IMG/VR virus record: IMGVR_UViG_3300036785_000284
Coordinates: 1-61,349 of that record
Strand: one strand, 5' to 3'
DNA from: a virus
Lineage: Duplodnaviria > Caudoviricetes
DNA: 61,349 bases
Both the position numbers and the translations under genes were made by a program. Below the pieces are notes generated by a model. It saw only the letters and a list, made by a program, of their open reading frames with translations, ran no database searches and was not told the DNA's origin. This document shows positions 4,083 to 58,008 of this stretch, piece after piece. How positions within the stretch are numbered: position 1 is the stretch's first letter; each line of letters opens with the position of its first letter.

Positions 4083-5060
4083 CTAGCGGACGCGGTTCTC
4101 GGCGAGAGCCCTGTCGATCTCAGCTTCGATGCGCTCCACGTCGGCTCGGCGACCGCGATAGTCTCCCCGGGACACGTCCTTGTAGAAGGCGTCCATCTCG
4201 CCGACGGTCCACATCTTGCGGCCGTCGTCGGGGGTGACCGGTGCAGACGCTCGGGCTTGGCCGGGCGACACCTGTGATGCGAGGTCGGACCCTGGAGCGA
4301 CGGGTTCTGCGGGCGGAACGGCCGGGGTCAGCGTCGGCTCTGATGTGGCCACCCCGAGGTAGGCGTTGAAGATTTTGGCGGTCCTCGGGGCGTCGAACAC
4401 CCGGAAGGCCTGTTGCAGGATGTCGTTACGGATGACCCCGGAAAACTCGTCCGGTTGCAGGAGCCACGCCTTGAACGCGTCCTGGCCGTCGGTCTCCTCG
4501 TAGGTCGGGCAGAGCTTCGCCAAGTCGGTGAAGTAGATCGCCCGTCGCTCATCCGTGACGTTACCCGCCACCTCCTCAACCTTGCTCGCGCTGGCCGCCA
4601 TCTGCTTCCGCAGTTCGGCGATCTCGCCTTGCAGCTTGGCCTTTTCCCCAGCATCGCTTTCCACAGCGACGCGACGGATCAGGTCAATCAGGTCGTCTCC
4701 GTAAGTCTCGGCGTCCTCGGTCGTGACCAACTTCGCGGGCGGCGGCGTCGCAACCGGCTGAGCGGGCTCCGGTGTCGCGGTGCGGGTGGCGTTCAGGTTC
4801 TCGATCTGCTGGCTGAGGTTGGCGACTTGGTTCCGCAACTGCGGCACCTCGGCGTTGTACTTGCCCTGCAAGGTCTGGAACTTGTGCTGCCAGTCGTCCA
4901 CGGTCGGGGCGGGCTGGACCGGTGCGGGCGGCGTCTCCGGCGGGGCGTTCGGATCAGGCGGTGTCTCCTGGGTTTCGCCCCGCTCTGCAGCGAGTTGGGC
5001 TTCCAGGGCTTCCGTCTGCTCGTGTTGCCGCTGCACGGCCTCGGGCACTCGCATCGTCAT
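4083..5060 (-). CDS. Capsid scaffolding protein
   Basis: Acidic coiled-coil 'WQHKFQTLQGKYNAEV' and C-terminal 'IEAEIDRALAENRVR'; lies between portal and capsid genes. Confidence 0.75.
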   Translation of the reverse strand: MTMRVPEAVQRQHEQTEALEAQLAAERGETQETPPDPNAPPETPPAPVQPAPTVDDWQHKFQTLQGKYNAEVPQLRNQVANLSQQIENLNATRTATPEPAQPVATPPPAKLVTTEDAETYGDDLIDLIRRVAVESDAGEKAKLQGEIAELRKQMAASASKVEEVAGNVTDERRAIYFTDLAKLCPTYEETDGQDAFKAWLLQPDEFSGVIRNDILQQAFRVFDAPRTAKIFNAYLGVATSEPTLTPAVPPAEPVAPGSDLASQVSPGQARASAPVTPDDGRKMWTVGEMDAFYKDVSRGDYRGRRADVERIEAEIDRALAENRVR

Positions 5061-5132
5061 CTACGTCTCCAGCTGCAACTCGGGGGCGGGGCGGGTCCTG
5101 GCCTGGGTGTCCGCCTGCCCCTTAATGGTCAG

Positions 5133-5384
5133 CTATGCCAGCGGAGCCTGTCGGCCCAGCTGCGCCAGCATAGACCGCGCTTCGCGGGCGGTCTGCTGGA
5201 TATCCCGGAGGGTGGCGAGGCGACCCTTGATCTCATGGACGTCTGCGGTTTTCCGCGCGCCGATGAGACGTTTGGTGACCGCCTCGATCTCCTCCGTAAA
5301 CATCTCGTCCACGTCCTTCCACCTCGGCGTCTCCACGTACTGCGACAGGGCAGTCAGGGCGGCCACGGTGGGCTTGGTGAACAT
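5133..5384 (-). CDS. Small conserved protein between portal and scaffold
   Basis: 83-aa helical ORF in a position common in podoviruses. Confidence 0.65.
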   Translation of the reverse strand: MFTKPTVAALTALSQYVETPRWKDVDEMFTEEIEAVTKRLIGARKTADVHEIKGRLATLRDIQQTAREARSMLAQLGRQAPLA

Positions 5385-5422
5385 CCGGCCCGAACCTGCG
5401 AGCGACGCACAGCTTTGTCAAC

Positions 5423-7702
5423 CTACATGGGCGGCGTGTTGTCGGTGATCGGCGCCCCGTTGGCCAGCGTCTGGACGTTGCCCTGGGTGGCCCCTGGGCC
5501 CGGCGGCGTGCCGCCCTGCATGCCGCCCATCGCCGGGCTGGAGCCCGGCGCAGGGGCCACGCCGAGGCCGCCGGGGGCGCCGGGCGGCGGCGTGGCCATG
5601 GCGCTCTTGATCGCCAGCTTCTGGCGAAGGGTGTCGATGTCCGGCACCACGTCGTCGGTGTTCATCTGCAACGACTTGGCGGTCTCGCGCAACACCGCCG
5701 CGCGGCCCTCGATGCCCATGATCTGCATGTCGACCGGGTTGGCGGTGGCGGCCAGGAACTCGGTGCGGCGCACCTGGGCGTTCTCCCGGGAGACGAGGTT
5801 GGACGCGCCGCGCGCCACGATGTTGACGTCGCCCTTCAACTCGGGGTCGGTCTCGTAGCGCATGTTGAAGTAGTACAGCCGCTCCAGCAGCGGCTCCATG
5901 ATGTTGAGGTCGATGTTGCGGATCACGGCGGTGATCATCTTGCCCGCGTTGGACATCAGCATGCTGAGGCCCGACGCCGTGCGCCCCGGACCGCCTGACG
6001 AGGCGTCGCCGGTCATGTAGCGCGGGATGCCCGAGTAGTCGTCGGCCATCAGGGCGAACTTGTCGAACACCTCCATCAGGTCCTGCAGCACCGACTGCGG
6101 CTGGAAGAACCGGATCGGCGGGTCGGCGTTGCCCTGGCCCATCGGGTCGCTGGTCATCTGCCAGATGCGCCACGGCTTCAGCTGGGTGATCTGCTCGCCG
6201 GGCGCGAGCCGGTCGATCAGGATGCCGACCTGGGGTCCAGACGCCAAAGCGCCGTTGTTGACCATCGCCCGGCCGGAGGCGTTGCAGACATCCTGCGGGT
6301 CCTTGACCAAGTCGGCCACCGAGTTGCCCCAGAACGACCCCGGGACGTTCTCGTAGCTGGTGGCGTAGTAAGGCCTGCGGTTCAACGGGTCGGGGTTGAG
6401 CATCGCCTTGATGACGTAGGGCCCGATCAGCCACGCCTCGACCTGATACTCGCGGGTGGGGTCGGGTATCTGCGCCTTCTTCATCCCCCAGTCGAGCAGC
6501 AGCTGGCCCTGCACGGAGCCCCAGTATTGCAGCGCGTCGATCAGGTTGTCGGGGTTGGAGAACACGTAGGTCAGCGGCTTGCCGACCGCGTCGTCGAACT
6601 GGCTCTGGTCGAACAGCCACGTCTGCAGGCCCTGCGAGCCGAAGTCCTCCAGCACCATGGCGATGGCCCCGTCGTCGTAGCCGGGGACGCCGCGCAGGGT
6701 CTGCAACTCGGCCCGGCTGAGCCGGTGCTTCTCAATGAAGTCGCCGTCCTCAGGCGTGGTGGCCTGCGGCGATGGATAGACCTTGAACGGGTCGACCCGC
6801 TCCCACTCCTTGGCCAGCTTGACGTTGACTACCGGCTGGCCGTCCTGGCCCCAGGTCATGAACGGCTTCAGGCGGATCACCGGCCCCTTGATCAGCGCGG
6901 TGGGGAAGATGGTCAGGTCGTTGATGAACTCGTCCAGTGCGTCGAGGAAGTGGCCCTCGACCAGCTGGTCCTCCATCTTGTCGGCCATCCGGTCGGTGCG
7001 CTTCTTGGCCTCGTCGCGCACCGCCGACATCGCTTGGTCGTACATCATCGACATCATCTTGATGACCGCCGCCTGATCCGGCGGCGGCCCGCCGCCCTGC
7101 ATGGAGGCGGCGATCTGCTGCTGGATCGGCCCCTGCGCGGCGGCGACGATGGCGTCGTTGATGTTGGGCGGAAGCTCCGGCACCGGGGTCGGCTCGATCG
7201 ACCACGGGCGCTCCTCGCCGGTGGTCATCATCACATCCCTGATCCACGCCCCGGCCGCCCGGCACTTGGCCCCGGTGAGCCCGATGTAGACCTCCGACCC
7301 GCCTTCCTGGCGGATGGCGTTGAGCTTCTGCGGCGTGTAGACGCTCCGCCGGGCGCGCAGGTTGTCCATCATCCGCTGCTCGATGTCGCCGAACCGGCGG
7401 GCGTCGCGGGCGATGGTGAACTTGTTCTGGATGTGCCCGGCCAACCCGGTGATCAGCGGCTGGTTCTGCCGCTGCTCGGCGGCGGACCGTGCGTCGGCCT
7501 CCTGCTGCTGCAGCGCGCCCAGGCTCATCGCCCGCATGGCGGCGTTCTGCAGCACGACGACGTTGGTGCCGGGATTGGACGCCGGGACCGGCGGCGGGGC
7601 CGGACCGCCCAGCGGCGGGTTCTGGCTGCCCAGCCCGGGGACCACCCCGGGCGGCAGGCCTGGAGCGATGCCGCCACCGGTCGGATATACGCCAGCCGCC
7701 AT
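5423..7702 (-). CDS. Portal protein
   Basis: 759 aa; 'ERVDPFKVYPSP', 'NVPGSFWGNSVADL', 'RTASGLSMLM'; directly downstream of the terminase gene. Confidence 0.9.
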   Translation of the reverse strand: MAAGVYPTGGGIAPGLPPGVVPGLGSQNPPLGGPAPPPVPASNPGTNVVVLQNAAMRAMSLGALQQQEADARSAAEQRQNQPLITGLAGHIQNKFTIARDARRFGDIEQRMMDNLRARRSVYTPQKLNAIRQEGGSEVYIGLTGAKCRAAGAWIRDVMMTTGEERPWSIEPTPVPELPPNINDAIVAAAQGPIQQQIAASMQGGGPPPDQAAVIKMMSMMYDQAMSAVRDEAKKRTDRMADKMEDQLVEGHFLDALDEFINDLTIFPTALIKGPVIRLKPFMTWGQDGQPVVNVKLAKEWERVDPFKVYPSPQATTPEDGDFIEKHRLSRAELQTLRGVPGYDDGAIAMVLEDFGSQGLQTWLFDQSQFDDAVGKPLTYVFSNPDNLIDALQYWGSVQGQLLLDWGMKKAQIPDPTREYQVEAWLIGPYVIKAMLNPDPLNRRPYYATSYENVPGSFWGNSVADLVKDPQDVCNASGRAMVNNGALASGPQVGILIDRLAPGEQITQLKPWRIWQMTSDPMGQGNADPPIRFFQPQSVLQDLMEVFDKFALMADDYSGIPRYMTGDASSGGPGRTASGLSMLMSNAGKMITAVIRNIDLNIMEPLLERLYYFNMRYETDPELKGDVNIVARGASNLVSRENAQVRRTEFLAATANPVDMQIMGIEGRAAVLRETAKSLQMNTDDVVPDIDTLRQKLAIKSAMATPPPGAPGGLGVAPAPGSSPAMGGMQGGTPPGPGATQGNVQTLANGAPITDNTPPM

Positions 7703-9608: not shown

Positions 9609-10385
9609 CTAACCCTTCGGGAGCCGGGGGGGAAGCCCTACCGGCTGGGCATGCCGGTCGAAGGCCCGCGCGGCGGCCTGGGCCAGGGTGGTCCCGGCCA
9701 GGGAGCCCACGCCCGGCACCGCGCCCGCCACGCCGGTGGCGGGGGTCTGCGGATGGCGCACGTCGAAGTCGGGGGTCTTGAGGTTGGAGATGTAGACCGG
9801 CGGCGGCAGCGCGTGGTCGAAGGTCAGCAGCGGCGGAGCCGCAGGGGAAGGCGGCGCGGAGGTGGGGGAAGTCGGGGTCGCGACGGTGGGAAGGATTTCC
9901 GCCGCGACCCCTGGAGCCGGGCGGGTCGGGACGTTCGGGCCCGGGCTCGTACCAGGGGTAACGTTGAGAGGCGCGGTGGCGTCGCCATTGATTTGAATAT
10001 TGATCTGGAAGCCCGGCCCGGCCAGCGGAGCGGCGGCGGTCGGCTTGAGGCGGCCGATGTCGGTGAGCTGCTTGGCCACCTCCACTTGCAGGGGAGCCGC
10101 GATGGCGGCGGCCATCGACTGCTGGAACAGCCGGGTGAGCAGGGCTTCGGCCATGGCGGCGGCCTTGATCTGGAACAGCTGGCCCGCGTCCTGAAGTTCT
10201 TGTCGCTTTCTTGCGACCAGCTCGTTGAACCAGGGTAGCGCCAGCATGTGTTCGAAGTCGACCACGTCGAGGCCATGCCGCTCGGCGATGTCGTGCGGAT
10301 GGTCGGCCCCCATGGCGATCTCAAGCACCATCGCCGGGTCGAAGTTCAGCCAGGGCTGGGCCAGGGGGGCTTCGGACATGGGCAT
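9609..10385 (-). CDS. Probable terminase small subunit with long Pro-rich tail
   Basis: HTH-like N-terminus 'HPHDIAERHGL', helical body and 'GPGFQINIQING' strand; upstream of terL. Confidence 0.6.
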   Translation of the reverse strand: MPMSEAPLAQPWLNFDPAMVLEIAMGADHPHDIAERHGLDVVDFEHMLALPWFNELVARKRQELQDAGQLFQIKAAAMAEALLTRLFQQSMAAAIAAPLQVEVAKQLTDIGRLKPTAAAPLAGPGFQINIQINGDATAPLNVTPGTSPGPNVPTRPAPGVAAEILPTVATPTSPTSAPPSPAAPPLLTFDHALPPPVYISNLKTPDFDVRHPQTPATGVAGAVPGVGSLAGTTLAQAAARAFDRHAQPVGLPPRLPKG

Positions 10386-10484
10386 CTACCCTAGCTGGCC
10401 CCTGGCGTGGGGGCCAGGGGCCTACGAGCCTGAGACGCCGTGTACGTGTCCGGGGGGCGGGAGGTAAACGGTTTGCTCGCGGCC

Positions 10485-10931
10485 CTAAGGTAAGGCTCCT
10501 GGGGCGGCTTTGGAAGTGTCAGTGTCTTGTGACGTGTCAGTCTCGTGAAGCTTTTCCCGCAGCACGTAGCCCAGCTTGGGCCACATGCGGCGGACGGCGT
10601 TCTCCTTGGCGAAGGTGCGGCCCTTGTCGGGGTCGTAGTTCTCGGGAGACGCGGGGGCCGACCAGCCGACCTCGACGAAGCCGTTGTTCATCTCCAGCAG
10701 GCAGATCGTCAGCATCGACAGCGGCGAGGGTGCGACCCCGGTGTCGACGCCGACCGCCTGCCCGGCGTTGATGTAGTACTCGCGGGCGATCAGCGCCTCG
10801 ATGTCGGGGATCGCCACACGCGGCGCCACCGCGCCTCTCGCGGATAGTTTTTCGGTGGCGGCGAGGGCGTCGGAGATGGGGGCGTGTCCGGCCATGGGGG
10901 CGACCCTAATCGCCCCACTCAGGTTCGCCAA
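10485..10931 (-). CDS. N4 gp49 / Sf6 gp66 family protein
   Basis: 'LTICLLEMNNGFVEVGWSAPASPENYDPDKGRTFAKENAVRRMWPKLGY' is the characteristic family motif. Confidence 0.85.
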   Translation of the reverse strand: MANLSGAIRVAPMAGHAPISDALAATEKLSARGAVAPRVAIPDIEALIAREYYINAGQAVGVDTGVAPSPLSMLTICLLEMNNGFVEVGWSAPASPENYDPDKGRTFAKENAVRRMWPKLGYVLREKLHETDTSQDTDTSKAAPGALP

Positions 10932-12369: not shown

Positions 12370-12402
12370 AACCCCCATGCCGCGAGGCATGGGGGTTTTT
12401 TT
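12370..12402 (+). terminator. Rho-independent terminator
   Basis: AACCCCCATGCC-gcga-GGCATGGGGGTT followed by a T-run. Confidence 0.9.
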
Positions 12403-12423
12403 GTGCCTGAAATTTGGTTAGGC

Positions 12424-12440
12424 GATTGCACCGTGCAATC
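12424..12440. repeat. 17-bp palindromic element, copy 2
   Basis: GATTGCACCGTGCAATC. Confidence 0.9.
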
Positions 12441-12513
12441 AAACTGGCCACGGGTTGTTAGGTTGTTAGATAGATTGGGATCGAAGCGACTAGCTGGCCA
12501 CAGGTTGTTAGGT

Positions 12514-12530
12514 GATTGCACCATGCAATC
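12514..12530. repeat. 17-bp palindromic element, copy 3 (variant)
   Basis: GATTGCACCATGCAATC. Confidence 0.85.
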
Positions 12531-13054
12531 ACAAATCGGGATCGAAGCGACCATTTCGGAATACACTTGTGTAATTTCTCGCCTCTGCGCGCGTACGCGC
12601 GTACGCGCCTCTGCGCGCCTCTGCGCCTCTGCGCGCGCGAGGCATATCGAGTACCGATAAAAACAGCTAACATAAGTGTAGTGTTAGGTCGGCCATCTGT
12701 GGCCACCTAACGGATTTTCGGAAAATTGGAACAATAGATTGGAACATGCTAAGTATATGTAAAATAATAATAATTTAATAGGTTGTTCCAATTGTTCCAT
12801 TTGTTCAATCAAAAAATAATAGAACCCCATGATGCGCGCCCACATGCGCACGTGCGCGTGCGCCCGCATACACATGTGTGCGCGCGTATTCGAAAAAAAC
12901 CTGCCACAAATGGAACAATTGGAACAATCCTTGATTTCATTGACCTTTTTCAAAAAAGCTTGGAACAACCCCTGGAACAATCGCCACAACCCACTTTGGC
13001 CGCCAAACCCGTCCGATCTGGCCCTTGATTATGGTCCAGCTTCATAGCTAGGCT

Positions 13055-13429
13055 GTGGCCATGATCTACCTCGACATCAAATGCGCGTGCCCGAGTTGCC
13101 AAGCTCTGCGACTGCCGGTTAAGCTCCGTGTCATGAGCATCAGGATCGCCGACCAGTTGGACCGTGTTGAACTGCTCCTCGACCCAAGGGTCGACCGCGC
13201 CATCGCGCCGCTCGTTGGCCGGTTGCGCAACCGCACCCTGACGCGCACCCAGTACCGTCGCCTCGTCTCCCTCATCGTTCAGAACGCCATACTGACCGGT
13301 CAGTCAGACGCGACGGTCTCCGTTCTCGACGTCGTGGCCCAGAAATGGCGCAAATGCCCGATGCGCTACATCCCCTCGCTCCCTTGGTCGCGCTTGTATC
13401 CTGAGCCGACCAGCGTCACCCTGGCCTGA
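13055..13429 (+). CDS. Hypothetical protein (CxCxxC)
   Basis: ORF with plausible codon usage after the non-coding region. Confidence 0.5.
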   Translation: MAMIYLDIKCACPSCQALRLPVKLRVMSIRIADQLDRVELLLDPRVDRAIAPLVGRLRNRTLTRTQYRRLVSLIVQNAILTGQSDATVSVLDVVAQKWRKCPMRYIPSLPWSRLYPEPTSVTLA

Positions 13430-15232: not shown

Positions 15233-15411
15233 CCGACCCCCTGGCCTGCCCACCGCACATGACCCCCGACCAGTTCGCCGCGTTCAGAGCGGAGGCTCGA
15301 CGAAAGCGCGCCGACTACGAGGCGGCCCGCACCCGCTACCGCCTCGCCCATCCGATCATCCCGATCACCGGCGAATGGACCCGCGACAGCCTGCCTGAGG
15401 ACCTTCGATGA
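15229..15411 (+). CDS. Hypothetical protein
   Basis: GTGA-coupled ORF. Confidence 0.45.
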   Translation: MTDPLACPPHMTPDQFAAFRAEARRKRADYEAARTRYRLAHPIIPITGEWTRDSLPEDLR

Positions 15412-15758
15412 CCGTCACCCACACAACGCCGGAGACCCAGTGTCCGGTCTGCCTGCACATCAACGACCGGGCCACCTCGGTGGACGACCACGCCGCGCCG
15501 CCGGTGGCCGGGGACTTCACGGTCTGCGGCAACTGCGCCTGCATCCTCGTGTTCGACACCTGCAAGGAATGTGGCGAACTGGACACCCGGCTGCCGCATC
15601 CGAACGAAGCCATCGAGCTTGAGGCCACGCAGCCGGGGATCGCCGAGACCCTGGCCGCCATGCAGCGCACGGTCATCCAGCAGCTCATCGCCACCCGGCC
15701 CGACTACCAGCCGCCGTGGCTGAACGGCGAGGCCATCACTGTGTTGCGCGTGCAGTAG
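15408..15758 (+). CDS. Cys-rich (zinc ribbon) hypothetical protein
   Basis: CPVC...CGNC...CKEC. Confidence 0.65.
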   Translation: MTVTHTTPETQCPVCLHINDRATSVDDHAAPPVAGDFTVCGNCACILVFDTCKECGELDTRLPHPNEAIELEATQPGIAETLAAMQRTVIQQLIATRPDYQPPWLNGEAITVLRVQ

Positions 15759-15759
15759 C

Positions 15760-16041
15760 ATGGCCGTGCTCAGCCGTTACGCCCAGCCGATCCGCCTTGG
15801 CCACGACGCCGAGCCGTTGGCCGTGCAACTGACCGACCACGACGTCGAGCCCGACGAAGTCGCAAGCTGGCAACGCGACGCCGACGCCATCACCTACCTG
15901 AAGGGACGCATCCTCCCCGACGGTCAGGCGCTGCGCGCCTACGAGCGGCTGGCCACCCTCATCGGCCAGCGCCTCAAGGCCCGGGAAGTCACCGCCGGGC
16001 TGCGCGCCGCCTACCAAGCCAAGCAGACCACCCCGCCGTGA
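15760..16041 (+). CDS. Hypothetical protein
   Basis: Tightly packed ORF. Confidence 0.55.
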   Translation: MAVLSRYAQPIRLGHDAEPLAVQLTDHDVEPDEVASWQRDADAITYLKGRILPDGQALRAYERLATLIGQRLKAREVTAGLRAAYQAKQTTPP

Positions 16042-16361
16042 GCACGCCGCGCGACCTGACCAAGGGCCCGACCATCCCGGAGGTGCGCAAGCAGATGCGT
16101 GCGCTCGCAGACGAGCTTCGCGCCATCGGTCTCGACGACTACGCCGTGCGCCTGGAGAACATGGCCGACAACACCTGCCGGGTGGTCCGTGCGCCGATCG
16201 TCCGCAGCAAGGCCAAGCGCATCACCCCCATCCTCGCCGCCCGGGTGCGCGGCTTCAAGCGCGCCCATCCGAGCGCCCTGCACCGCGAGATCGGCATCGT
16301 GTTCGGCATCGACGGGGGACGCGTCTCGGAAATCCTCAACGGCAAGCGCAGCCCGCTGTAG
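16038..16361 (+). CDS. Putative HTH DNA-binding protein
   Basis: C-terminal 'LHREIGIVFGIDGGRVSEILNGKR'. Confidence 0.6.
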   Translation: MSTPRDLTKGPTIPEVRKQMRALADELRAIGLDDYAVRLENMADNTCRVVRAPIVRSKAKRITPILAARVRGFKRAHPSALHREIGIVFGIDGGRVSEILNGKRSPL

Positions 16362-16440
16362 GCCGTCTCGACGCCGTCGCAGACCTAGCGTAGTGGTCCG
16401 AGGGGCGTCCTCGTTCCAACCCCTGCACGGAGTTACACCC

Positions 16441-16977
16441 ATGAAGGTCACCCCGGCCGCGATCGTCACAGGCGGCGGACCCGACAACAGCCTGCCCGAA
16501 GTCCCCGGCCCGGTCGATCCCGGCTACGGCGTCGAGCTTCCTCCGGTCATCGACAACGGCCTGCCCGACAATCCCGGCGTCTGGCCGCCGCAGCGTCCCA
16601 ACTTCCCGGTCTATCCCAACCACGACCTGCCGCGCCCGCCGCACGTCTGGCCGAGCCCGCCGGTCGGGCCGGACAACTCGCTGCCGTCCCTCCCAGGGCA
16701 TCCGTCGCATCCGATCTATCGGCCGCCGGTGAAGCCCGACAACTCGCTGCCGCTGCCTCCGGGGAGTGTCTGGCCGCCGCTGCCGCCGTCGCTCGACGGC
16801 AAGTACCTCGTGTTCGCCTGGATCGTCGGCGTCGGCTACCGGTTCACGGTCATCGACACCACGCTGGACACCGGCTTCCCGCTGCCGCCGGTACACGGTC
16901 ATCCGGGCCACGAGCTTCCCAACGCCCCGGTGCGGCCAGACGCCGGACTTCCGCCCACCGCGCAGCCGAAGTCGTAA
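16441..16977 (+). CDS. Pro-rich repeat protein
   Basis: Repeated PDNSLP / HPSHPI motifs; GGAG RBS before ATG 16441. Confidence 0.7.
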   Translation: MKVTPAAIVTGGGPDNSLPEVPGPVDPGYGVELPPVIDNGLPDNPGVWPPQRPNFPVYPNHDLPRPPHVWPSPPVGPDNSLPSLPGHPSHPIYRPPVKPDNSLPLPPGSVWPPLPPSLDGKYLVFAWIVGVGYRFTVIDTTLDTGFPLPPVHGHPGHELPNAPVRPDAGLPPTAQPKS

Positions 16978-16993
16978 AAGTTGAGAAACAAGC

Positions 16994-17022
16994 TTGACGC
17001 GTCAAAAAGCGTCGAGCATGTT
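16994..17022 (+). promoter_or_regulatory. Putative promoter with palindromic overlaps
   Basis: TTGACG-N17-CATGTT. The -35 lies in TTGACGCGTCAA and the -10 in TCGAGCA-tgt-TGCTCGA. Confidence 0.4.
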
Positions 17023-17029
17023 GCTCGAA

Positions 17030-17163
17030 CGAGGCGGCCAACACCACTTGGCCTAGCCGGAGACGGAAGCGGAGGCAACTCCGTCTCCGACCCCAGCCGG
17101 ACCTTGCGGAGTGAACCGTCTCGTACATGCGGCCCATCAGGGGAAACTCTGGTGGGCCGCATC
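17030..17163 (+). ncRNA. Candidate structured RNA / leader
   Basis: Stems GGCCAA/TTGGCC, GAGACGG/CCGTCTC and CGGAG-gcaa-CTCCG, plus a long GAAA-capped hairpin at about 17127-17162. Confidence 0.45.
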
Positions 17164-17165
17164 GT

Positions 17166-17182
17166 AATTGCACCGTGCAATC
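17166..17182. repeat. 17-bp palindromic element, copy 5 (variant)
   Basis: AATTGCACCGTGCAATC upstream of the RiPP-like peptide gene. Confidence 0.85.
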
Positions 17183-17202
17183 AGCAGGACTACGCTGACC
17201 GC

Positions 17203-17358
17203 ATGGACAAGCCTGATCCTCCGCCGCTGGTCGACCACCCGCTCGACGTGCTGCTGGGCTCCGTGGCCATCCAGCGCCTCGTCGAGGAAGTCCGGCTCGA
17301 ACAGACCACCGAGGTCATCCACGGCTACAACCGCATCTTCAACCGCCACAACCGGTGA
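17203..17358 (+). CDS. YhhA/triceptide-type RiPP precursor-like peptide (51 aa)
   Basis: MDKPDPPPLVDHPLDVLLGSVAIQRLVEEVRLEQTTEVIHGYNRIFNRHNR: leader 'S.AI.RL.EEVR' and core 'YNRxxNRHNR'. Confidence 0.7.
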   Translation: MDKPDPPPLVDHPLDVLLGSVAIQRLVEEVRLEQTTEVIHGYNRIFNRHNR

Positions 17359-17364
17359 CGCGTC

Positions 17365-17517
17365 ATGCCGCTGAAGAAATCCCCATCGGACAAGGCGGTC
17401 GGTCAGAACATCAAGACCGAACTGGCGGTGGGTCGTCCGTTGAAGCAGGCCCAGGCCATCGCGCTGGACACCCAGCGCCGCGCCGGGGGTGGCTCACCAC
17501 CGAAGAAGGGCAAGTAA
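17365..17517 (+). CDS. Small basic phage protein (MPLKK...KQAQAIAL type)
   Basis: MPLKKSPSDKAVGQNIKTELAVGRPLKQAQAIALDTQRRAGGGSPPKKGK. Confidence 0.7.
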   Translation: MPLKKSPSDKAVGQNIKTELAVGRPLKQAQAIALDTQRRAGGGSPPKKGK

Positions 17518-17518
17518 C

Positions 17519-17764
17519 ATGGCCAAGGGTCCGCCTGCCAAGCCGATCCCGTCGCTGCCGCCGATGAAGGCGATGCGTCCAGGCCCGTCCGACGTCGCCA
17601 ACCCGACCGCTGCGCCGTGGTCGATGACCACCGGCACCTCGATGCGCGAGAAAGCCCTGGAAGCTGCGTCGAAAGACGCCCGGATCGCCCAGGGCGTGCC
17701 GGGCAGCCCCGGCGGCCTCGCCCCGCAGGGACAGATCGGCCAGAACCTGCTGAACACCAAGTGA
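17519..17764 (+). CDS. Pro-rich disordered small protein
   Basis: Starts 1 nt after the previous stop. Confidence 0.55.
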   Translation: MAKGPPAKPIPSLPPMKAMRPGPSDVANPTAAPWSMTTGTSMREKALEAASKDARIAQGVPGSPGGLAPQGQIGQNLLNTK

Positions 17765-17774
17765 GGACGTAGCC

Positions 17775-17912
17775 ATGCCCAAGGTCACCGTCGGCAAGTC
17801 GAAGCTGGTGCCGCCCAAAGCTCCGCCCTTCGCGCCGCCTGTCTCGCCCGCGCTGGACAAGGCGCTGGGCAGCAAGTTTCCGCCGCCGCTGCCGCCCCGC
17901 AAAGGTAAGTGA
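17775..17912 (+). CDS. Pro/Lys-rich small protein (45 aa)
   Basis: GAGGA RBS; MPKVTVGKSKLVPPKAPPF... Confidence 0.5.
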   Translation: MPKVTVGKSKLVPPKAPPFAPPVSPALDKALGSKFPPPLPPRKGK

Positions 17913-17914
17913 CC

Positions 17915-18085
17915 ATGAACGTGCTGCTCTACATCCTCGTGGTGCTGCTGTTCGTCGGCATCATCGGCGCCATCGCCTACTACATCCCCTTCCCGCCGCC
18001 GCTGGCGTGGCTGAAGTGGGTGATCCCGCTGCTGGCGCTGCTGGTGGCGATCTTCCTGATCGTCCCCAAGCTCAACGGGGCCTGA
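17915..18085 (+). CDS. Two-helix small membrane protein (Thivi_2564-like)
   Basis: MNVLLYILVVLLFVGIIGAIAYYIPFPPPLAWLKWVIPLLALLVAIFLIVPKLNGA. Confidence 0.7.
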   Translation: MNVLLYILVVLLFVGIIGAIAYYIPFPPPLAWLKWVIPLLALLVAIFLIVPKLNGA

Positions 18086-18241
18086 TGTCACAAAAATTTC
18101 CTGTGGACGGGGAACCGATCAGCTTGACTGCACATGTGGCGCAGGTCTACCCATAGGGCCAGCCTTCAGGAACACCGTTCTTTGCAGGTTGGGGGACCGG
18201 GTGCGACCCGAAAACGCGCTCCTGATCAGGATGAAACACTC

Positions 18242-18601
18242 ATGAAGAAGCTCTTTGCGGGCGTCGCCGCCCTCGCGCTGCTGGCTGCTATGCCCGCAGC
18301 CGCCGCCGTCGCGACCACCGCTGGCGCGACCAGCCAGACCGCCTCGTCCGCGTCCTCGACCACGCTCGGTGCGGGTTCGGCTTCCGGCGCTGGCTCCGCG
18401 ACCAACGTCTCGACCGCCGCCGCCAACGCCAACCACACCGTCAACCCGTTCGCCCCAACCGTGGCCAACGCCACGGTGGTGACGACCTCGACCGGCGTCG
18501 CTGCCGACACCCACACCCAGACGGGTTTCTCGATCGGCACCAGCGCGGGCGCTCAGGCGGGCCTGTCGGTGGGCACCGCCTCGGCCAGCTGGCCTTTCTA
18601 A
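18242..18601 (+). CDS. Secreted Ala/Ser/Thr-rich protein
   Basis: Sec signal MKKLFAGVAALALLAAMPAAAA; low-complexity beta-type body ending in WPF. Confidence 0.7.
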   Translation: MKKLFAGVAALALLAAMPAAAAVATTAGATSQTASSASSTTLGAGSASGAGSATNVSTAAANANHTVNPFAPTVANATVVTTSTGVAADTHTQTGFSIGTSAGAQAGLSVGTASASWPF

Positions 18602-18744
18602 GCGGCTGGCAGCAAGCCAGCTTCCGTCTCCGGGCGGCGGCTGTCCTGCTGCTGGCGCTTAGAACGGACTAGGTGTCCCCGGCGGCGGTGTTGACACGCC
18701 ACCGACCGCCGGGGATTTCTCCAACCAAAGGTGGGGCTCACCCT

Positions 18745-19689
18745 ATGAAGAACCTTCTGCTCACGGCGGCCACCGCCGCCCTCCTGGCCTTCACTCCGGC
18801 CCTCGTCTTCGCCCAGGACACCTCGACGTCCGGCGCGACCAGCGGGTCGGCCTCCAACGCCCAGAACAACGCGTCCAACGGTCCGCAGACCACCACGGTC
18901 GGGCCGCAGACCAACACGCTGGGCCCGGTCAGCGACACGTCCGCGTCCAACTCGACGTCGGGCTCCAACTCGACCAGCGGCTCGCAGGCCAACAACGGTG
19001 GCCAGAACGTCGGCGTCAGCACCAGCGGCAGCACCGCCACCTCCAACACCGCGTCGAACTCGGCCTCGATGTCGCAGGGCGGCACGGCGGCGTCCGACGC
19101 CCACTCGACCGGCGGCACGTCCAGCGCGACCGGCGGAACCGGTGGCGCCGGTGGCTCCTCGGCGGCCAACGCCAACAACGCCGCCTCCAACGCGGGCAAC
19201 GCCCAGAACATCAACTTCAACACCGTCACGCCGACCCACGTCACCGAGACCGTCAAGTCGGTGCCGCAGGTGTTCGCCCCGGCGCTGACCACCACGCTGA
19301 CCGAGACCTGCATGGGCTCGACCAGCGCCGGGGGATCGGGCGTGGGCTTCGGCTTCTCGATCGGCTCGACGTGGCGTGACGGCGAATGCGCCCGTCGCCT
19401 CGATGCGCGCGAACTGGCCCAGACGCTGGGCGATCCCGAGGCGGCCCGCGCCGTGCTCTGCGGCTCGCATGACGTGTTTGACGCCTACGAGCGCATCGGC
19501 CGTCCGTGCCCGCAGTCGCCGAACTACAAGTCGGCCGACGCCTCGGCCTACCTGCCGCAACGGCCGGTCCCGCCTGCCCCGGTGTCGCCGGTGGTGATCA
19601 ACGTGCCGCCGCCCGCAGCCGCTCCGGCTCCCATGATGGCTCCAATCCCCAACCCGCCGGAACCGAGGGCGAAGCAGCCACGCGGTTAA
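18745..19689 (+). CDS. Secreted protein with S/T/N-rich N-half and Cys-containing conserved domain
   Basis: Signal peptide ...ALVFA|QD; 'APALTTTLTETCMGSTSAGGSGVGFGFSIGSTWRDGECARRLDAREL'. Confidence 0.75.
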   Translation: MKNLLLTAATAALLAFTPALVFAQDTSTSGATSGSASNAQNNASNGPQTTTVGPQTNTLGPVSDTSASNSTSGSNSTSGSQANNGGQNVGVSTSGSTATSNTASNSASMSQGGTAASDAHSTGGTSSATGGTGGAGGSSAANANNAASNAGNAQNINFNTVTPTHVTETVKSVPQVFAPALTTTLTETCMGSTSAGGSGVGFGFSIGSTWRDGECARRLDARELAQTLGDPEAARAVLCGSHDVFDAYERIGRPCPQSPNYKSADASAYLPQRPVPPAPVSPVVINVPPPAAAPAPMMAPIPNPPEPRAKQPRG

Positions 19690-40420: not shown

Positions 40421-43357
40421 ATGGGGGGCGATGTGAACTCGACTTTCTTCGACACCATCCTGCCGTCGCAAGGGCTGCGCTGCATCGCCCTGCCCCGGCC
40501 GGACAACAAGTGGCACCACCACTGGGGCAGCAGCAACGCGTGGCTAGTTCGTGAGGTGGCCCGCCTCGACGCCCTTGGCGAGACCGTCTATTTCGCCTGC
40601 GCCAGCTTCCAGACCACCAGCCCGGCGCGGCCCAACTCACGCCGCCGCCAGGACCACGTGGCCTTCGTGCGCGCCTTCTGGATCGACATGGACGTGGGCG
40701 TCAGCGAGCCGGGCAAGCCGAAGTACCCGACCCAGGAGGCCGCCATCCGTGCGATCGTGGCCTTCGTCAATGCGCTCAAGCTTCCCATCCCCTGGCTGGT
40801 CTCGTCGGGGACAGGTCTCCACGTCTACTGGCCGATGGACGCCGACATGGCGGTGGAGGATTGGAAGCCGGTCGCGCAGGCCCTGAAGGCGGCGCTGACG
40901 GCGATGGGCGTGCTGTTCGACCCCTCGCGCACGGCGGACGAAGCCAGCGTCCTGCGGCCGCCGGGCGCGACGCACCGCAAGGACCCGGCCAATCCGTTGC
41001 CGGTGACGATCCTAAAAGTCGGCAAGACGTCGAACTTGCCGACGTTCGCTGCGCTGCTGCCCGCCGTGGCCGCCCGCCCGTCGGCCTCGCCAAAGGCCAA
41101 GTTGTCGACAGCCAACGCCGCCCTGGGCGGCGGCATGGGCCCGACGTTCGAGCCCTCGTCCGCCCACCTGATCGCCGACCGCTGCGGGGTCATCGGGCTG
41201 ATGCGCGACACCGGCGGCAAGCTCGACCAAGCGACGTGGTATCACAGCCTGGGTGTGCTGGTGCTGACCGAGGAAGCCCCGGACATCTGCCACGAATGGT
41301 CACAGGGCGACCCGCGTTACACCGCCGCCGAGGTCGACGCCAAGCTGACCCAGATCGGGCCGTTCGCCCCGACCACCTGCGACAAGCTGGCCGAGGACCA
41401 GCCGGACATCTGCGCGGCCTGCCCGTATCGCGGCAAGATCACCACGCCTCTCCAGCTTGGCCGCGAACCGGCGACGGCCAGCGGTGGCGCGGGCCAGGGT
41501 GGCGGGGCGTTCGGCGGCGGCACGACGACGGGCGGCGACCCGTCCGATCCTGAGCCGGGGATGCCGTCGAAGGGCTACCGCATCCAGACCGACAGGGGCC
41601 ACCGCGTCCTGGCCCACTACGTGCCAGCCGACGGCACCAAGCCTGAGCGCTGGGACATCTTCTGCCGTACGCCGTTCTGGCCGACGCTGCGGGCGCGCAC
41701 CGTGAACGGCGACCACTTCTACGAATGGGCGGCCGAGGAGCGCACCGGGGGCTTGCGAACCTTTGCCTTGGATGGCGGCGTCATCGGCAAGGGCGGATCG
41801 GATGTCGCCAAGGAGCTTGGCCGAAATGATATCTACATCGTCGAAGGCAAGGAACGCGCCATGGCGGCATACCTCAAGCGCTGGATGGACCGGCTTCAGG
41901 ACACCCGCGCCGTGACCGCCCACACGAGCTTCGGCTGGAACGAGGAAGGCTTCGTCACCGGCGACTTCGTGGTCGGCTACGATGGTCGCGAGACCAAGTC
42001 GCGGATGGCCGGGCCCGCACGAAACCGCCAGGACGTCGTGGTCTGCAAGGGTAGCCTCGACGCCTGGAAGACCATGGTCGACCGGGCCTACAACGCGCCC
42101 GGCCAGGAGGCTTTCCAATTCCAGCTTCTGTGCGGCTTCGCCGCACCGCTGATGCGATTGCTGGGTATGGTGGAGGGCGTCACCGTGTACGCCCACTCCT
42201 CCGGTTCCGGGGTCGGCAAGACCACGGTGCAGCGCGCCGCCCTGAGCATCTGGGGCTACTGGCGCGAGATGATCCTGGCCCAGGACAAGACCACGATGAA
42301 CGCCCTCTGGGCGCTGATCGGCGCCTACAACACACTACCCATTGTGTACGACGAACTGACTAACGCTAAGAACGATGAGGTCTCGAACCTCGTGTTCTCG
42401 GTGTCGTCCGGCCGCGCCAAGGAGCGTCTCAATCAGGCTGGCGAAATGCGTGACAACAACTCGCACTGGACCACCATCCTGCTGGCCAGCGGCAACCTGC
42501 TGCTGTCGGACAAGCTGGCCGCCCACCGCCTGAACCCTGACGCCGAGATCAGCCGCCTGTTCGAGTTCACCCAGCCACCGCCCAACCACCTGACCGCCAA
42601 CGAGGCCAACGACCTGTTCGGACTGATGGACGACAACTACGGCCACGCTGGTCTGGTCTACGCCCGCTTCCTCGTGAAGCACCGCGCGCTGATCACCTCC
42701 GGGCTGCAGGAGATGCGCACCAGCATCAACAAGCTCTACGACATGCAGCCGGTCGATCGCTACTGGGCGGGGCTGTTCACCTGCGTACTGATGGCCTTGA
42801 AGCTATGCCACGGCCTAAAGCTGCTGGGCTTCGAAACCGCGCCGCTCAAGATGTGGATGAGTGACCAGCTTGAGGAGAACCGTGGCCAGAAGACCGCCTC
42901 GGTCGTCACGCCCGAGGAGAGCCTGGGCCTGATGATGGGGGACCTGTGGCCGAACGTGCTGGTCACCGACATCCTCGGCGACATTCGACGCGGCCGCAGG
43001 GCGAACGTGCCGCCGGACTACCGCATGCCGATGGCCGCCCTGGTCGGACGCCGCACCTTCGGCGACGTCAACGAAGCGCCGATCCTGTGGCTGAGCCGCA
43101 TGGCGATCCGCGACTGGTGCGCCCTCAAGCGGGTCAACTACAAGGACCTGTTCAACGCCGCTGTCGCCCTCGGCTGGGCTGAGAAATCCGACTGTCACAA
43201 GATGCGGCTGGGGACCGGGATGCCGTTCTCCACCACACCGGTCATCTGCTGGAAGATGATCCCGACCGCGATGCCGGACGCCGCCCACACGCCGTTCTTC
43301 ACCGTGGTTCAGGGTGGCCTTGGCCAAGCTCCGGGAGCCCAGACCGGCACGCCCTAG
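40421..43357 (+). CDS. Primase (AEP/RepB-like) fused to DUF927 helicase-like domain
   Basis: 'FWIDMD', 'SSGTGLHVYW', 'VLRPPG', Cys cluster, P-loop 'GSGVGKTT', 'YDE', 'NYGHAG'. Confidence 0.88.
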   Translation: MGGDVNSTFFDTILPSQGLRCIALPRPDNKWHHHWGSSNAWLVREVARLDALGETVYFACASFQTTSPARPNSRRRQDHVAFVRAFWIDMDVGVSEPGKPKYPTQEAAIRAIVAFVNALKLPIPWLVSSGTGLHVYWPMDADMAVEDWKPVAQALKAALTAMGVLFDPSRTADEASVLRPPGATHRKDPANPLPVTILKVGKTSNLPTFAALLPAVAARPSASPKAKLSTANAALGGGMGPTFEPSSAHLIADRCGVIGLMRDTGGKLDQATWYHSLGVLVLTEEAPDICHEWSQGDPRYTAAEVDAKLTQIGPFAPTTCDKLAEDQPDICAACPYRGKITTPLQLGREPATASGGAGQGGGAFGGGTTTGGDPSDPEPGMPSKGYRIQTDRGHRVLAHYVPADGTKPERWDIFCRTPFWPTLRARTVNGDHFYEWAAEERTGGLRTFALDGGVIGKGGSDVAKELGRNDIYIVEGKERAMAAYLKRWMDRLQDTRAVTAHTSFGWNEEGFVTGDFVVGYDGRETKSRMAGPARNRQDVVVCKGSLDAWKTMVDRAYNAPGQEAFQFQLLCGFAAPLMRLLGMVEGVTVYAHSSGSGVGKTTVQRAALSIWGYWREMILAQDKTTMNALWALIGAYNTLPIVYDELTNAKNDEVSNLVFSVSSGRAKERLNQAGEMRDNNSHWTTILLASGNLLLSDKLAAHRLNPDAEISRLFEFTQPPPNHLTANEANDLFGLMDDNYGHAGLVYARFLVKHRALITSGLQEMRTSINKLYDMQPVDRYWAGLFTCVLMALKLCHGLKLLGFETAPLKMWMSDQLEENRGQKTASVVTPEESLGLMMGDLWPNVLVTDILGDIRRGRRANVPPDYRMPMAALVGRRTFGDVNEAPILWLSRMAIRDWCALKRVNYKDLFNAAVALGWAEKSDCHKMRLGTGMPFSTTPVICWKMIPTAMPDAAHTPFFTVVQGGLGQAPGAQTGTP

Positions 43358-52396: not shown

Positions 52397-53469
52397 CAGA
52401 CTGCGACCTTGCCGTAGTCGAGCATCTTGTAGCCACCGGGCCCGGTGACCACCGCCTCAGGGAACACCGGCTCGACCTCGTCGGCCATGTAGCCGTAGCG
52501 CAGCGGCGCGCTATCCGGCTCCCAGATGTAGTGGAACATCCACACCCCGATGTCGTGGGCCAGGGTGGCGATCCGCTTGGTGTGCTTCTTGAGGCGGCGA
52601 TCAGAAAAGATATTCCCGGCAACAGAACTCGCAACACCGCCAGCACCGGGCGCGGCGGCTGAGAGCGCCGCGCCGCCCAGCGTCCCGACCAGCTGACCGA
52701 TCCCGGCCAACGGTGACGGCTGCGCCATTGCGGTCTTCTGCAGGGTGGTGAAGGCGTCGAGGTTCGCGCCGTAGGCTTTCTGAGCGAGGCCCAGGCCCGC
52801 GTTGACGTTGGCCGCGCCACCGGGAACCACGGCGGCGGTCTGGTTGGCGCCCGACGTCCCGGCGCTCGACGCGCCACTGGCCGCGCCGGAGAACCCCAGG
52901 ATGCCCGACTGGCCGCCGCGCCCGAAGTTGGCGGCGTCGCTGGTCAGCTGCATCCCAAGCTGTTGCGCGCCCCTGCGTGCGTCGGTGGCGGCCTTGGCCT
53001 GCACGGCGGCGTTCTGCACCGCCATGTCGCTGGACGCCGACAGAGCGGCCGGGCTGGTGGGGTCGACCCCCAGGCTCTGCATCTGGCGGGCCTGGGTCGC
53101 GGCCTGTCCGGCCTGCGCCGTGCGCGCGTCGCCGATCGCCGCCTGCGCCTGCTCCTCCTGCTTGGCGGGCGCGGAGTAGTCCTGCACCATCTTGTAGTAG
53201 GCGTCCTCGGCGGGGATGCCGAGTTGCTGGTAGCGCTGGTTCTGTAGCTGAGCTTCGCTCTGCGTCAGGTTGAAGATTTGCTGCTGCTGGGCGGTGTTCT
53301 GCTGGCTCGCCGCCGTCGCCGAGGTCAGCGATGGCGCGACGTACTGGTTGTAGAAGTTCTCGTTCCAGTTCTCGGCCTGCTGCGCGGTAGAGGCGTTGGA
53401 GGCGGCGGCAGCGGCGACCTGGGGGTCGGGTGCGGCGGCATTACCCTTGCGGAACCAGCGGCTATGCAT
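52396..53469 (-). CDS. Internal virion / pilot protein with C-terminal S74-like domain
   Basis: Q/A/G-rich body; 'SDRRLKK...GYMADEV...YKMLDY'. Confidence 0.75.
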   Translation of the reverse strand: MHSRWFRKGNAAAPDPQVAAAAASNASTAQQAENWNENFYNQYVAPSLTSATAASQQNTAQQQQIFNLTQSEAQLQNQRYQQLGIPAEDAYYKMVQDYSAPAKQEEQAQAAIGDARTAQAGQAATQARQMQSLGVDPTSPAALSASSDMAVQNAAVQAKAATDARRGAQQLGMQLTSDAANFGRGGQSGILGFSGAASGASSAGTSGANQTAAVVPGGAANVNAGLGLAQKAYGANLDAFTTLQKTAMAQPSPLAGIGQLVGTLGGAALSAAAPGAGGVASSVAGNIFSDRRLKKHTKRIATLAHDIGVWMFHYIWEPDSAPLRYGYMADEVEPVFPEAVVTGPGGYKMLDYGKVAV

Positions 53470-57558: not shown

Positions 57559-58008
57559 CTAGCCTATCGTGACATCCCACGTCAGGTTCAGGGTCTGGTC
57601 GTCGAACTTATCCACAGCCAGGAAGACCACACGCGCCAGCATGTCGCCAGCCACCGCGTCGTTGAACAGCCCGGTCTCGGTCAGGGTGCCGGAGCCGACG
57701 CCGGGCGGCATCGAGGCGGTGTAGACGATCAGGTTGCCGGTCACCACGGTGGTCAGCGGCATGCGGGTGCCCGCCACCTCGTTGCCCAGCGCGGTGTCGA
57801 GCAGGCTCGGAGGCGTCGAGAACGAGCCGAACGCCGCATAGCTCATCGGGACTTTGGTGGGAGCCGCCTGCATGCGGTTGGCGACCACGCCCTTGCCGAC
57901 CGTAGTCACAAGGTTGACGGCCTCGCGATGCGCGGCGAGGCCGTCCGGCCCGACCAGTTCCAGCCGGACCAACCCTGTCACCCGGATGCCGTCGGGCGAT
58001 ACGTTCAA
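57559..58008 (-). CDS. Tail protein
   Basis: 'NLVTTVGK...DTALGNE...TETGLFN...MLARVVF'. Confidence 0.7.
   Translation of the reverse strand: MNVSPDGIRVTGLVRLELVGPDGLAAHREAVNLVTTVGKGVVANRMQAAPTKVPMSYAAFGSFSTPPSLLDTALGNEVAGTRMPLTTVVTGNLIVYTASMPPGVGSGTLTETGLFNDAVAGDMLARVVFLAVDKFDDQTLNLTWDVTIG

Follow-up and report, generated by a model that had tools for sequence, protein, structure and literature searches.

The YhhA/YhhB/YhhC pathway, reportedly described by Sugiyama et al. in JACS in 2022, makes triceptides, that is, three-residue cyclophane members of the peptides made by ribosomes and then modified posttranslationally (RiPPs). In this study, we have analyzed a yhhA-like precursor gene carried by a tailed phage (Caudoviricetes), IMG/VR record IMGVR_UViG_3300036785_000284, the whole of which (61,349 bp) is referred to here as the window. 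YhhB is reported to link Tyr-C3 and His-C2 to Arg-C-beta in three-residue motifs (PMC11002830), the His-C2 to Arg-C-beta linkage forming the HNR ring (PMC11499958), and YhhC is the Asp/Asn beta-hydroxylase of the pathway, yielding beta-hydroxy-Asp after hydrolysis (PMC12186529). The window gene has the precursor hidden Markov model (HMM) family, the leader motif and the Tyr/His-x-Arg core of the pathway treated in these three papers; unlike bacterial precursors, which adjoin a maturase in 52 of 53 loci, it stands alone in a complete viral genome. The precursor family is therefore not new in itself; the literature searched gave no report of precursor-only viral copies or of the linkage of the bacterial pathway to Septu, whose PtuA and PtuB proteins are an anti-phage ATPase-nuclease pair.

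A second described system that invites comparison is the type I-A retron Ec78/Eco7, which co-opts PtuAB, so that here too a PtuA ATPase and a PtuB HNH nuclease are joined to an accessory biosynthetic module. The accessory module of Ec78 sequesters PtuAB until infection (PMC12819146), the pair being held by the product of that module (PMC12673091), and phages counter the retron with genes dedicated to this, T5 Rad and tRNA-Tyr (bioRxiv 10.1101/2023.03.15.532788). The retron product is multicopy single-stranded DNA (msDNA) made by a reverse transcriptase, whereas the Yhh product would be a radical S-adenosylmethionine (SAM)-modified peptide, and on the Yhh side the likeness is one of gene linkage, from which regulation of PtuAB is surmised.

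The phage gene occupies the 3' part of a longer mechanical open reading frame (ORF; 16981 to 17358, 125 amino acids, TTG start), where the sequence-only reading had placed it, and it translates as MDKPDPPPLVDHPLDVLLGSVAIQRLVEEVRLEQTTEVIHGYNRIFNRHNR followed by a stop. The GC content at codon positions 1, 2 and 3 is 0.73, 0.33 and 0.88 in 17203 to 17358 and 0.62, 0.59 and 0.59 in 16981 to 17202; because GC3 is of the coding type in the former stretch and GC is flat upstream, codon-position composition indicates that only the last 51 codons of the 125-amino-acid ORF are coding. The ATG at 17203 is the likely start, since the N-terminal extension aligns with bacterial precursors of similar length. 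The NCBIfam model NF041705 (RIPP_cyclo_YhhA), with a curated cut-off of 36 bits, matched the peptide at 51.2 bits (E 1e-13, profile positions 3 to 33 of 33) and scored 50.7 bits in a six-frame search of the whole record; it gave no match in 14 control genomes, and the 51-amino-acid peptide had no match in Pfam, PHROGs or PADLOC. The earlier assignment to the YhhA-like RiPP precursors, made without database searches, thus held up against the family model.

The only close relative returned by a word-index protein search was P0002 (92% identity; contig of 1,052 nt), and a full HMMER scan of 1.84 billion representatives returned 29 other proteins (E up to 0.001). The query, P0002 and these 29 make up an alignment (A1) of 31 sequences with the consensus LDVxxxSVAIxRLIEEVR ... 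YNRxYNRHNR, in which R25, E29, Y42, R44, R48, H49 and R51 are invariant and S20 and A22 are conserved in at least 90% of the sequences. Residues 20 to 31 of the phage peptide, SVAIQRLVEEVR, follow the leader motif S-x-A-[IL]-x-R-[LI]-[IV]-[ED]-E-[VI]-[RK], and its C-terminal core consists of three aromatic-x-Arg motifs with an HNR end. The Phe at the middle aromatic position, which had been singled out from the sequence, is an ordinary family variant: 6 of the other 29 representatives have it, and so do 10 of the 65 precursor ORFs from bacteria, those 10 being the group nearest the phage peptide. The best bacterial matches came from Sphingomonadaceae, Caulobacteraceae and Acetobacteraceae, and the nearest precursors (Caulobacteraceae, Acetobacteraceae and the Sphingomonas group), which include those of the Septu-linked operons L019 to L021, have Phe too. 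Judged by model score, leader and core, the phage gene encodes a genuine, intact YhhA-family precursor.

No maturase gene accompanies it. A six-frame search of the 61,349-bp record with the radical SAM model PF04055 gave 0 matches, tblastn with bacterial YhhB, YhhC and the HExxH hydroxylase gave no match in the window, and the precursor is therefore not part of a Yhh cluster, having no YhhB, no YhhC 2-oxoglutarate-Fe(II) (2OG-Fe(II)) oxygenase and no aKG-HExxH hydroxylase beside it. CheckV rates the record 100% complete. Completeness is also supported by a 173-nt direct repeat at its ends (1 to 173 and 61177 to 61349, 99% identical), which represents a terminal repeat or else results from assembly overlap, the genome then being circularly permuted; IMG/VR nevertheless lists the record as linear. 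The earlier claim that this complete genome has no radical SAM gene is borne out. The window contains neither PtuA nor PtuB, and the same holds for the 13 viral loci considered next; the phage yhhA is a copy of one part of the proposed Yhh-Septu system, not a member of the system.

Orphan yhhA genes recur in about a dozen phage lineages. Viral and bacterial loci were obtained by pattern-based retrieval with the family alignment, and the IMG/VR scan yielded 13 other loci with YhhA genes, which amount to 11 distinct peptides because L006/L007 and L011/L012 are near-identical pairs. The search for orphan homologues in viral databases that the sequence-only reading had called for was thus productive: PF04055 had no match in any of the 13 whole viral records (five of them 96 to 100% complete, one with terminal repeats), and YhhB, YhhC and HExxH were absent from the fetched flanks of all 13 loci. 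YhhB lies beside the precursor in 52/53 bacterial versus 0/13 viral loci, and the window lacks it too (Fisher p = 1.5e-13). Every viral peptide has the leader and a core with three aromatic-x-Arg motifs, and P0002 and the 11 viral peptides all pass the NF041705 cut-off (12/12, 39.0 to 54.5 bits); copies kept intact in this way fit a product that still has to be modified and to function. Terminase, portal and capsid genes show that the contigs belong to real phages. Their GC ranges from 0.38 to 0.70, and only L008 has head genes in common with the window phage (35 to 45% identity). The usual site of the gene in the other phages is the terminase-portal interval or immediately ahead of the small terminase subunit, and its position differs even among related phages, such as L005 and L013. 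By nearest-neighbor identity, viral and bacterial peptides are interspersed, the peptides being too short to reveal donors or the number of transfers.

A scan of metagenome contigs added 80 loci, with YhhB or YhhC beside the precursor in 65. Neither was present in the available flanks of the other 15, only 3 of which have at least 1.5 kb on both sides, and 5 of the 15 are, by blastn, the same as or close relatives of the yhhA phages. The sole locus of a first, single-protein viral scan (L002) was discarded as a chance match, an open frame without a core, and no family common to the viral loci was found that could serve as a non-radical-SAM maturase. As a separate observation, L007, L008 and L010 have an ORF directly downstream of yhhA (10338 to 10634, 10105 to 10632 and 10090 to 10365, respectively), 65 to 73% identical among them, matching viral hypothetical-protein families only and with its start overlapping the yhhA stop codon in L008 and L010. 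Since this ORF is common to phages with unrelated head modules (that of L008 differs), the arrangement suggests that yhhA and the downstream ORF may form a small two-gene mobile cassette.

Phages do acquire host DNA and the gene is small, so that a neutral passenger, a piece of a host cluster that was captured recently and does nothing for the phage, has to be considered. We regard this as very improbable. The gene is present in about 12 phage lineages, among which its genomic position varies, always as a complete precursor and never with a piece of yhhB, and in the window it has a phage-type codon bias and the phage's own control motif (see below). Moreover, variant contigs from two other soil runs (X2 and X3) were available for comparison, and in X3 the gene differs by four changes, namely, two synonymous ones and G19N and Q24K at variable leader positions. 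There is no change in 17273 to 17358 (about 84 nt, the conserved end of the leader plus the core), as against about 19 substitutions plus indels, some 8% divergence, in the upstream spacer (16978 to 17202).

The scan of one genome per species gave 53 bacterial loci. By tblastn, YhhB lies beside the precursor in 52 of them (L061 is without it, and L063 has a remnant only), YhhC in 51 and the HExxH hydroxylase in 50; the identities were assigned in L016 by NF041707 (497 bits, cut-off 445), NF041706 (247 bits) and TIGR04267 (90.5 bits). The 53 loci hold 65 precursor ORFs, many clusters having two, of which the first precedes yhhB and the second separates yhhB from yhhC. Clustering of the flanking ORFs gave only two further recurrent families, the next largest occurring in four loci, and tblastn placed a PtuA-like gene in 40 and a PtuB-like gene in 39 of the 53. 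The PADLOC PtuA model PDLC00304 matched at 473 to 481 bits over nearly the full length (L016 and L019) and at 391 bits in L035, and the PtuB model PDLC00339 matched at 270 to 287 bits.

The two sets of genes lie close together, with a median gap of 91.5 nt between aligned ends, and in various orders: Septu is convergent and downstream of yhh in 29 cases, codirectional and upstream in 9 and divergent in 1, and the hits overlap in 1. The array in L019 (3524 to 8567) reads ptuA-ptuB-yhhA-yhhB-yhhC-HExxH, with a 4-nt overlap of ptuA and ptuB. Septu-linked loci were found in Alpha- and Gammaproteobacteria, Nitrospirota, Binatia, Acidobacteriota, Actinobacteriota and Syntrophobacterales, and PtuA/B was present in 8 of 10 metagenome cluster loci with long flanks. 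Of 301 sampled Sphingomonadaceae genomes, 3 carry this PtuA subtype (E up to 1e-40), in each case no farther than about 1.3 kb from YhhB; the remaining 298 do not. Apart from weak generic hits, PADLOC 2.0 offers no model that covers YhhA, YhhB or the hydroxylases, and we put forward yhhA-B-C-HExxH together with ptuA/ptuB as a candidate six-gene defense system that is not in PADLOC 2.0. The suggestion of the sequence-only reading that the host pathway might be an anti-phage one gains support from the linkage to PtuA/PtuB in 40 of 53 loci and from the Tad2-like and Acb2-like neighbors of yhhA in phage L011, described below. Literature searches for a link of PtuA/PtuB to cyclophanes, triceptides, SPASM proteins or YhhB, and for phage-borne orphan RiPP precursors, found none, which is not proof of absence in print.

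Two bacterial loci are degenerate. L063 has a decayed yhh cluster (5828 to 6523) with a short YhhB (38 amino acids) and YhhC and HExxH remnants, beside which an intact precursor-like ORF and a PtuA-like gene remain. L061, in a metagenome-assembled genome (MAG), has an orphan YhhA-like ORF (5947 to 6102; 31.5 bits, below the cut-off) beside a helix-turn-helix/Xre-type gene, with no YhhB over the cut-off in the genome; by its sequence it may be a decaying copy.

It can be envisioned that the phage instead hijacks natural-product synthesis, the host-made triceptide aiding the cell or the phage through competitor exclusion, signaling or antagonism, with no link to Septu. The conserved core would be expected in that case, and prophage-borne RiPP or bacteriocin clusters are known (bioRxiv 10.1101/2020.10.01.322628); like yhhA, these are phage-borne RiPP genes, but they are whole clusters on temperate phages, whereas the yhhA phages carry the precursor only (maturase in 0/13) and no integrase was found among the PHROG matches of the window. 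No exporter or leader protease is a recurrent family in the bacterial flanks, and none lies beside the phage genes, which makes a secreted product unlikely and fits an intracellular one; the tight, exclusive adjacency to PtuAB would also be left unexplained. We therefore consider this alternative improbable. Another likeness is to the anti-phage lanthipeptides of Streptomyces, whose RiPP clusters lie in defense islands and whose intracellular product acts against phage (PMC12360287; bioRxiv 10.1101/2024.06.26.600839); they belong to another RiPP class, and the accessible parts of these sources report no phage-encoded precursor copy that we found.

Some of the phage copies keep company with known anti-defense genes. 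In L011 (a 100% complete record; also in L012), the portal gene is directly followed, in 4861 to 5695, by a small hydrophobic ORF, yhhA, a Tad2-like gene and an Acb2/Tad1-like gene, the Tad2-like gene (PF11195, 93.6 bits) starting 4 nt after yhhA and the Acb2/Tad1-like gene matching PF24729 at 29.1 bits. In L008, both kinds of gene are present (12393 to 13228) at 2.3 kb from yhhA. Small accessory genes such as Tad2 and Acb2/Tad1 cluster in phages. These sponges (anti-Thoeris and anti-CBASS) resemble yhhA in location; they differ in that they bind nucleotide signals and have no sequence relation to YhhA, and the window phage has no Tad2-like gene. As support for a counter-defense role, this neighborhood is real but thin.

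The same neighbors, and the Yhh-Septu linkage itself, would fit as well if the peptide were a competitive decoy that titrates host YhhB, so that the host peptide arming a Septu-linked defense stays unmatured and the phage product has no role of its own. A conserved leader is what a maturase-binding decoy needs, and the precursor is only ever carried by itself, with a radical SAM gene in 0/13 viral records. A decoy need not keep every modifiable residue, however, and all three aromatic-x-Arg motifs are retained in 12/12 viral-type peptides, which also score above the cut-off and whose core variation stays inside the bacterial range; in addition, a good substrate gets turned over and is hence a weak inhibitor. 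Overall, a decoy seems unlikely to us, if less so than hijacked synthesis. Maturation in trans and a decoy had both been offered by the sequence-only reading, and our choice between them is a judgment from sequence features: the intact leader of the phage copies argues for recognition by a maturase, and the core, being intact as well, speaks for a product that functions rather than for a dead decoy.

The surroundings of yhhA in the window (Table 1) bear on how the gene would be expressed. The 226-nt spacer upstream of it is noncoding and strongly structured; the fold of 16978 to 17210 has a free energy of -122.9 kcal/mol (z = -9.9, with 0/200 shuffles as good), and an Rfam search of the whole window returned no family. 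Within the spacer, the hairpin immediately before the palindrome has double compensatory changes in the X2 and X3 contigs at 17131/17158, 17133/17156, 17138/17151 and 17139/17150, and 17137 T>C in the same contigs turns a G-U pair into G-C; because of these four double changes and the G-U to G-C change, we judge that the hairpin is a selected structure. With no T-run on its 3' side, it does not qualify as a classical intrinsic terminator.

There are 11 copies of the palindrome ATTGCACNNTGCAAT in the record against 0.04 expected; they are confined to the plus-strand early/replication half (11.5 to 40 kb), and many have a hairpin just before them. Nine of the 11 sites are followed within about 50 nt on the plus strand by an AGGA-type element resembling a ribosome-binding site (RBS) and an ATG. 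After eight of the other copies a (G)AAGGA-type element lies 4 to 10 nt before the ATG, so that the spacing at yhhA is longish. From its distribution, the set looks like a phage-specific promoter or operator regulon. Since the palindrome-plus-RBS arrangement is common to yhhA and eight other plus-strand genes, including some in the replication region, yhhA appears to be wired into the phage's own early/replication control scheme; as a hint of early expression, the sharing is only suggestive. The structured leader and the palindrome copy that had been noticed in front of the gene are therefore both there, the leader fold being better than all shuffles and its hairpin pairs compensated in variant contigs. 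Two terminator-like hits were found in 15300 to 19000, no more than expected by chance. The downstream 50-amino-acid gene, which had no match in Pfam or PADLOC, is probably cotranscribed with yhhA.

Table 1. Features of the window around yhhA and elsewhere in the phage genome
Feature	Position	Strand	Remarks
yhhA-like gene	17203-17358	+	Triceptide (three-residue cyclophane) precursor, 51 amino acids, stop codon included
Conserved leader segment, residues 14-31, LDVLLGSVAIQRLVEEVR	17242-17295	+	Fits consensus LDVxxxSVAIxRLIEEVR
Core YNRIFNRHNR	17326-17355	+	Three aromatic-x-Arg motifs (YNR, FNR, HNR), then stop
Structured spacer remainder, noncoding	16978-17126	+	No coding signature, fold z = -9.9, no Rfam family
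14-bp hairpin immediately before palindrome	17127-17162	+	Inverted repeat I2, part of the minimum-free-energy fold
Palindrome ATTGCACCGTGCAAT	17167-17181	.	One of 11 copies; promoter- or operator-like element, 21 nt before ATG
Palindrome starts (15 nt each)	11528, 12425, 12515, 14164, 17167, 20995, 22311, 25875, 26951, 31640, 40083		
AGGA RBS-like element	17186-17189	+	13 nt before yhhA ATG
50-amino-acid gene	17365-17517	+	phrog_2423, E 1.8e-16, GC3 0.80; starts 6 nt after yhhA stop
Major head protein, portal, large terminase	3-9 kb	-	PHROG matches
DNA polymerase, helicase, primase	31-43 kb	+	PHROG matches
2,314-amino-acid protein	43354-50298	-	PHROG matches including a DarB-like antirestriction family and an endolysin family

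Taking these observations together, we tentatively postulate, as a proposal to which we give a little less than an even chance, that the phage yhhA supplies a precursor matured by host YhhB/C enzymes and thereby subverts a Yhh-linked Septu defense. The case for a counter-defense mimic arises from the position of the bacterial pathway beside an anti-phage nuclease system in most loci. The phage would make the YhhA precursor from its own early/middle-type control element, without a maturase of its own; the host YhhB radical SAM/SPASM enzyme, YhhC and the HExxH hydroxylase would recognize the peptide through its conserved leader and install in it the three cyclophane rings that the host peptide has. 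The bacterial pathway would be an integral partner of a dedicated Septu PtuA/PtuB pair, with the matured peptide holding or tuning PtuAB, by analogy with the sequestration of PtuAB in retron Ec78, and a phage-supplied precursor would keep the nuclease silent during infection, as a mimic of an antitoxin or regulator. We infer the expression of the gene, the maturation by host enzymes, the contact with PtuAB and the direction of the effect.

Phage antitoxin mimics are known, such as the pseudo-ToxI RNA of PhiTE, which acts against ToxIN, and T4 Dmd, which acts against RnlA/LsoA. Likewise, yhhA would be the phage's own copy of a labile inhibitory partner of a host abortive-infection system; unlike these mimics, which act as made, it would need host enzymes first, a new dependency. 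Genes directed against Septu and against retrons are also found in phages. Cleavage of tRNA-Tyr is the means by which Septu restricts phage T6 (PMC13096335), and tRNA-Tyr was considered as another route of Septu evasion, with none found in the window or in 11 viral loci. A complex prediction for the PtuA, PtuB and own YhhA of L019 (alignments A2 to A4) scored 0.00 with no control runs and speaks neither for nor against contact; in vivo the peptide would be modified anyway.

In a more far-reaching version of this proposal, the Yhh triceptide pathway would serve not to make an antibiotic but to regulate, or to sense for, a six-gene immune system of the Septu type, and at least a dozen phage lineages would have taken the precursor alone to have it matured by the host into a PtuAB inhibitor; this version seems to us doubtful as it stands. 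Equally doubtful is its mechanistic form, in which a continuously matured, radical-SAM-cross-linked peptide would keep PtuAB in check and the phage copy would be a substrate-mimic counter-defense.

Several observations weigh against the counter-defense proposal. In the fetched flanks, 13 of the 53 bacterial loci have no PtuAB, including all three from Streptomyces and several from Sphingomonas, and the RiPP pathway can therefore exist without Septu; one of the 13 adjoins a SIR2-type gene and another a ThsB gene (441 bits). In the literature searched, as far as the available text of the sources extends, no biological role of YhhA peptides was found. Pfam and PADLOC recognized no anti-defense gene beside yhhA in the window, and Tad2-like genes are absent from five complete records searched, namely, the window and four of the five others that are at least 96% complete. 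The fifth of these is the record of L011, which does carry one, and the anti-defense neighborhood therefore comes from 2 of about 12 phage lineages. The candidate promoter that had been proposed in front of yhhA was not recovered, since a sigma-70 scan of 15300 to 19000 gave 0 promoter-like sites, and no RNA run containing 16400 to 18100 of the window was among the runs matched. The presence of YhhB in the phage's host is presumed in the proposal, and any contact of the peptide with PtuAB, be it inhibiting or activating, would be a further presumption. Finally, YhhB is rare, over the cut-off in 4 of the 301 Sphingomonadaceae genomes; many defense systems are as rare.

The rarity of YhhB, set beside orphan genes that span a phage GC range of 0.38 to 0.70, would be less troublesome if the peptide acted unmodified, its Arg-rich C-terminal motif hitting PtuAB, RNA or an unrelated target with no cyclophane and no host maturase. 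The orphan in the L061 MAG, whose genome has no YhhB over the cut-off, points the same way. RiPP leaders serve recognition by the maturase, however, and the leader is as conserved in the phage copies as in bacteria; the L061 orphan is degenerate, as expected after loss of the enzyme, and the phage copies are not. Action of the unmodified peptide is accordingly quite unlikely in our view, and we retain maturation by the host as the tentatively preferred account.

The remaining features of the window are those of a podovirus-like phage by PHROG matches, tail fiber genes among them. The portal protein is 39% identical to those of Rhizobium phages RHph_TM3_14A, TM27A/B and TM29 and 26 to 29% identical to those of HMO-2011-type phages of Alphaproteobacteria. 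Among 50,697 GenBank phage records there was no DNA match and no match to the peptide at E up to 1, and 16400 to 18100 of the window was present in four DNA runs from soil metagenomes; the record may derive from one of these. The 2,314-amino-acid protein is, from its PHROG matches, probably an ejected internal virion protein. Two minus-strand, tail-fiber-like genes, one near each end of the record (2 to 1297 and 58005 to 60212), have stretches of several hundred nucleotides that are 72 to 82% identical (repeat families D1, D4, D8 and D19) and encode paralogous receptor-binding proteins. ARAGORN called a tRNA-Gln(CTG) at 53047 to 53114 (plus strand) inside a minus-strand virion structural gene (52396 to 53469), probably a false positive. 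Upstream of the spacer, the protein product of 16438 to 16977 is rich in Pro, contains repeated PDNSLP-like units and is hydrophobic in its C-terminal part; the BLAST comparison with a similar-looking ORF upstream of yhhA in L013 was not significant.

In conclusion, the linkage to Septu gives a testable answer to the question of what YhhA-type triceptides do, since the pathway looks like a component of an anti-phage system of the Septu type. Two lines that are independent of each other agree on this, the near-obligate adjacency of a dedicated PtuA/PtuB pair across phyla and the recurrence of precursor-only copies in phages, where they sometimes adjoin known anti-defense genes. If the proposal is true, it would add a layer of peptide chemistry to bacterial immunity and, beside retron msDNA, a new accessory-module control of Septu effectors, and the phage genes would represent a new class of counter-defense that relies on host maturation enzymes. 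Mining pipelines that drop precursors without a nearby maturase would then be missing meaningful viral genes. In its more far-reaching version, the proposal would provide a RiPP that regulates immunity and an anti-defense gene that has to be matured by the system that it disarms, each the first of its kind. Should the model of a regulatory peptide and its phage-borne mimic hold, it would be categorically new.

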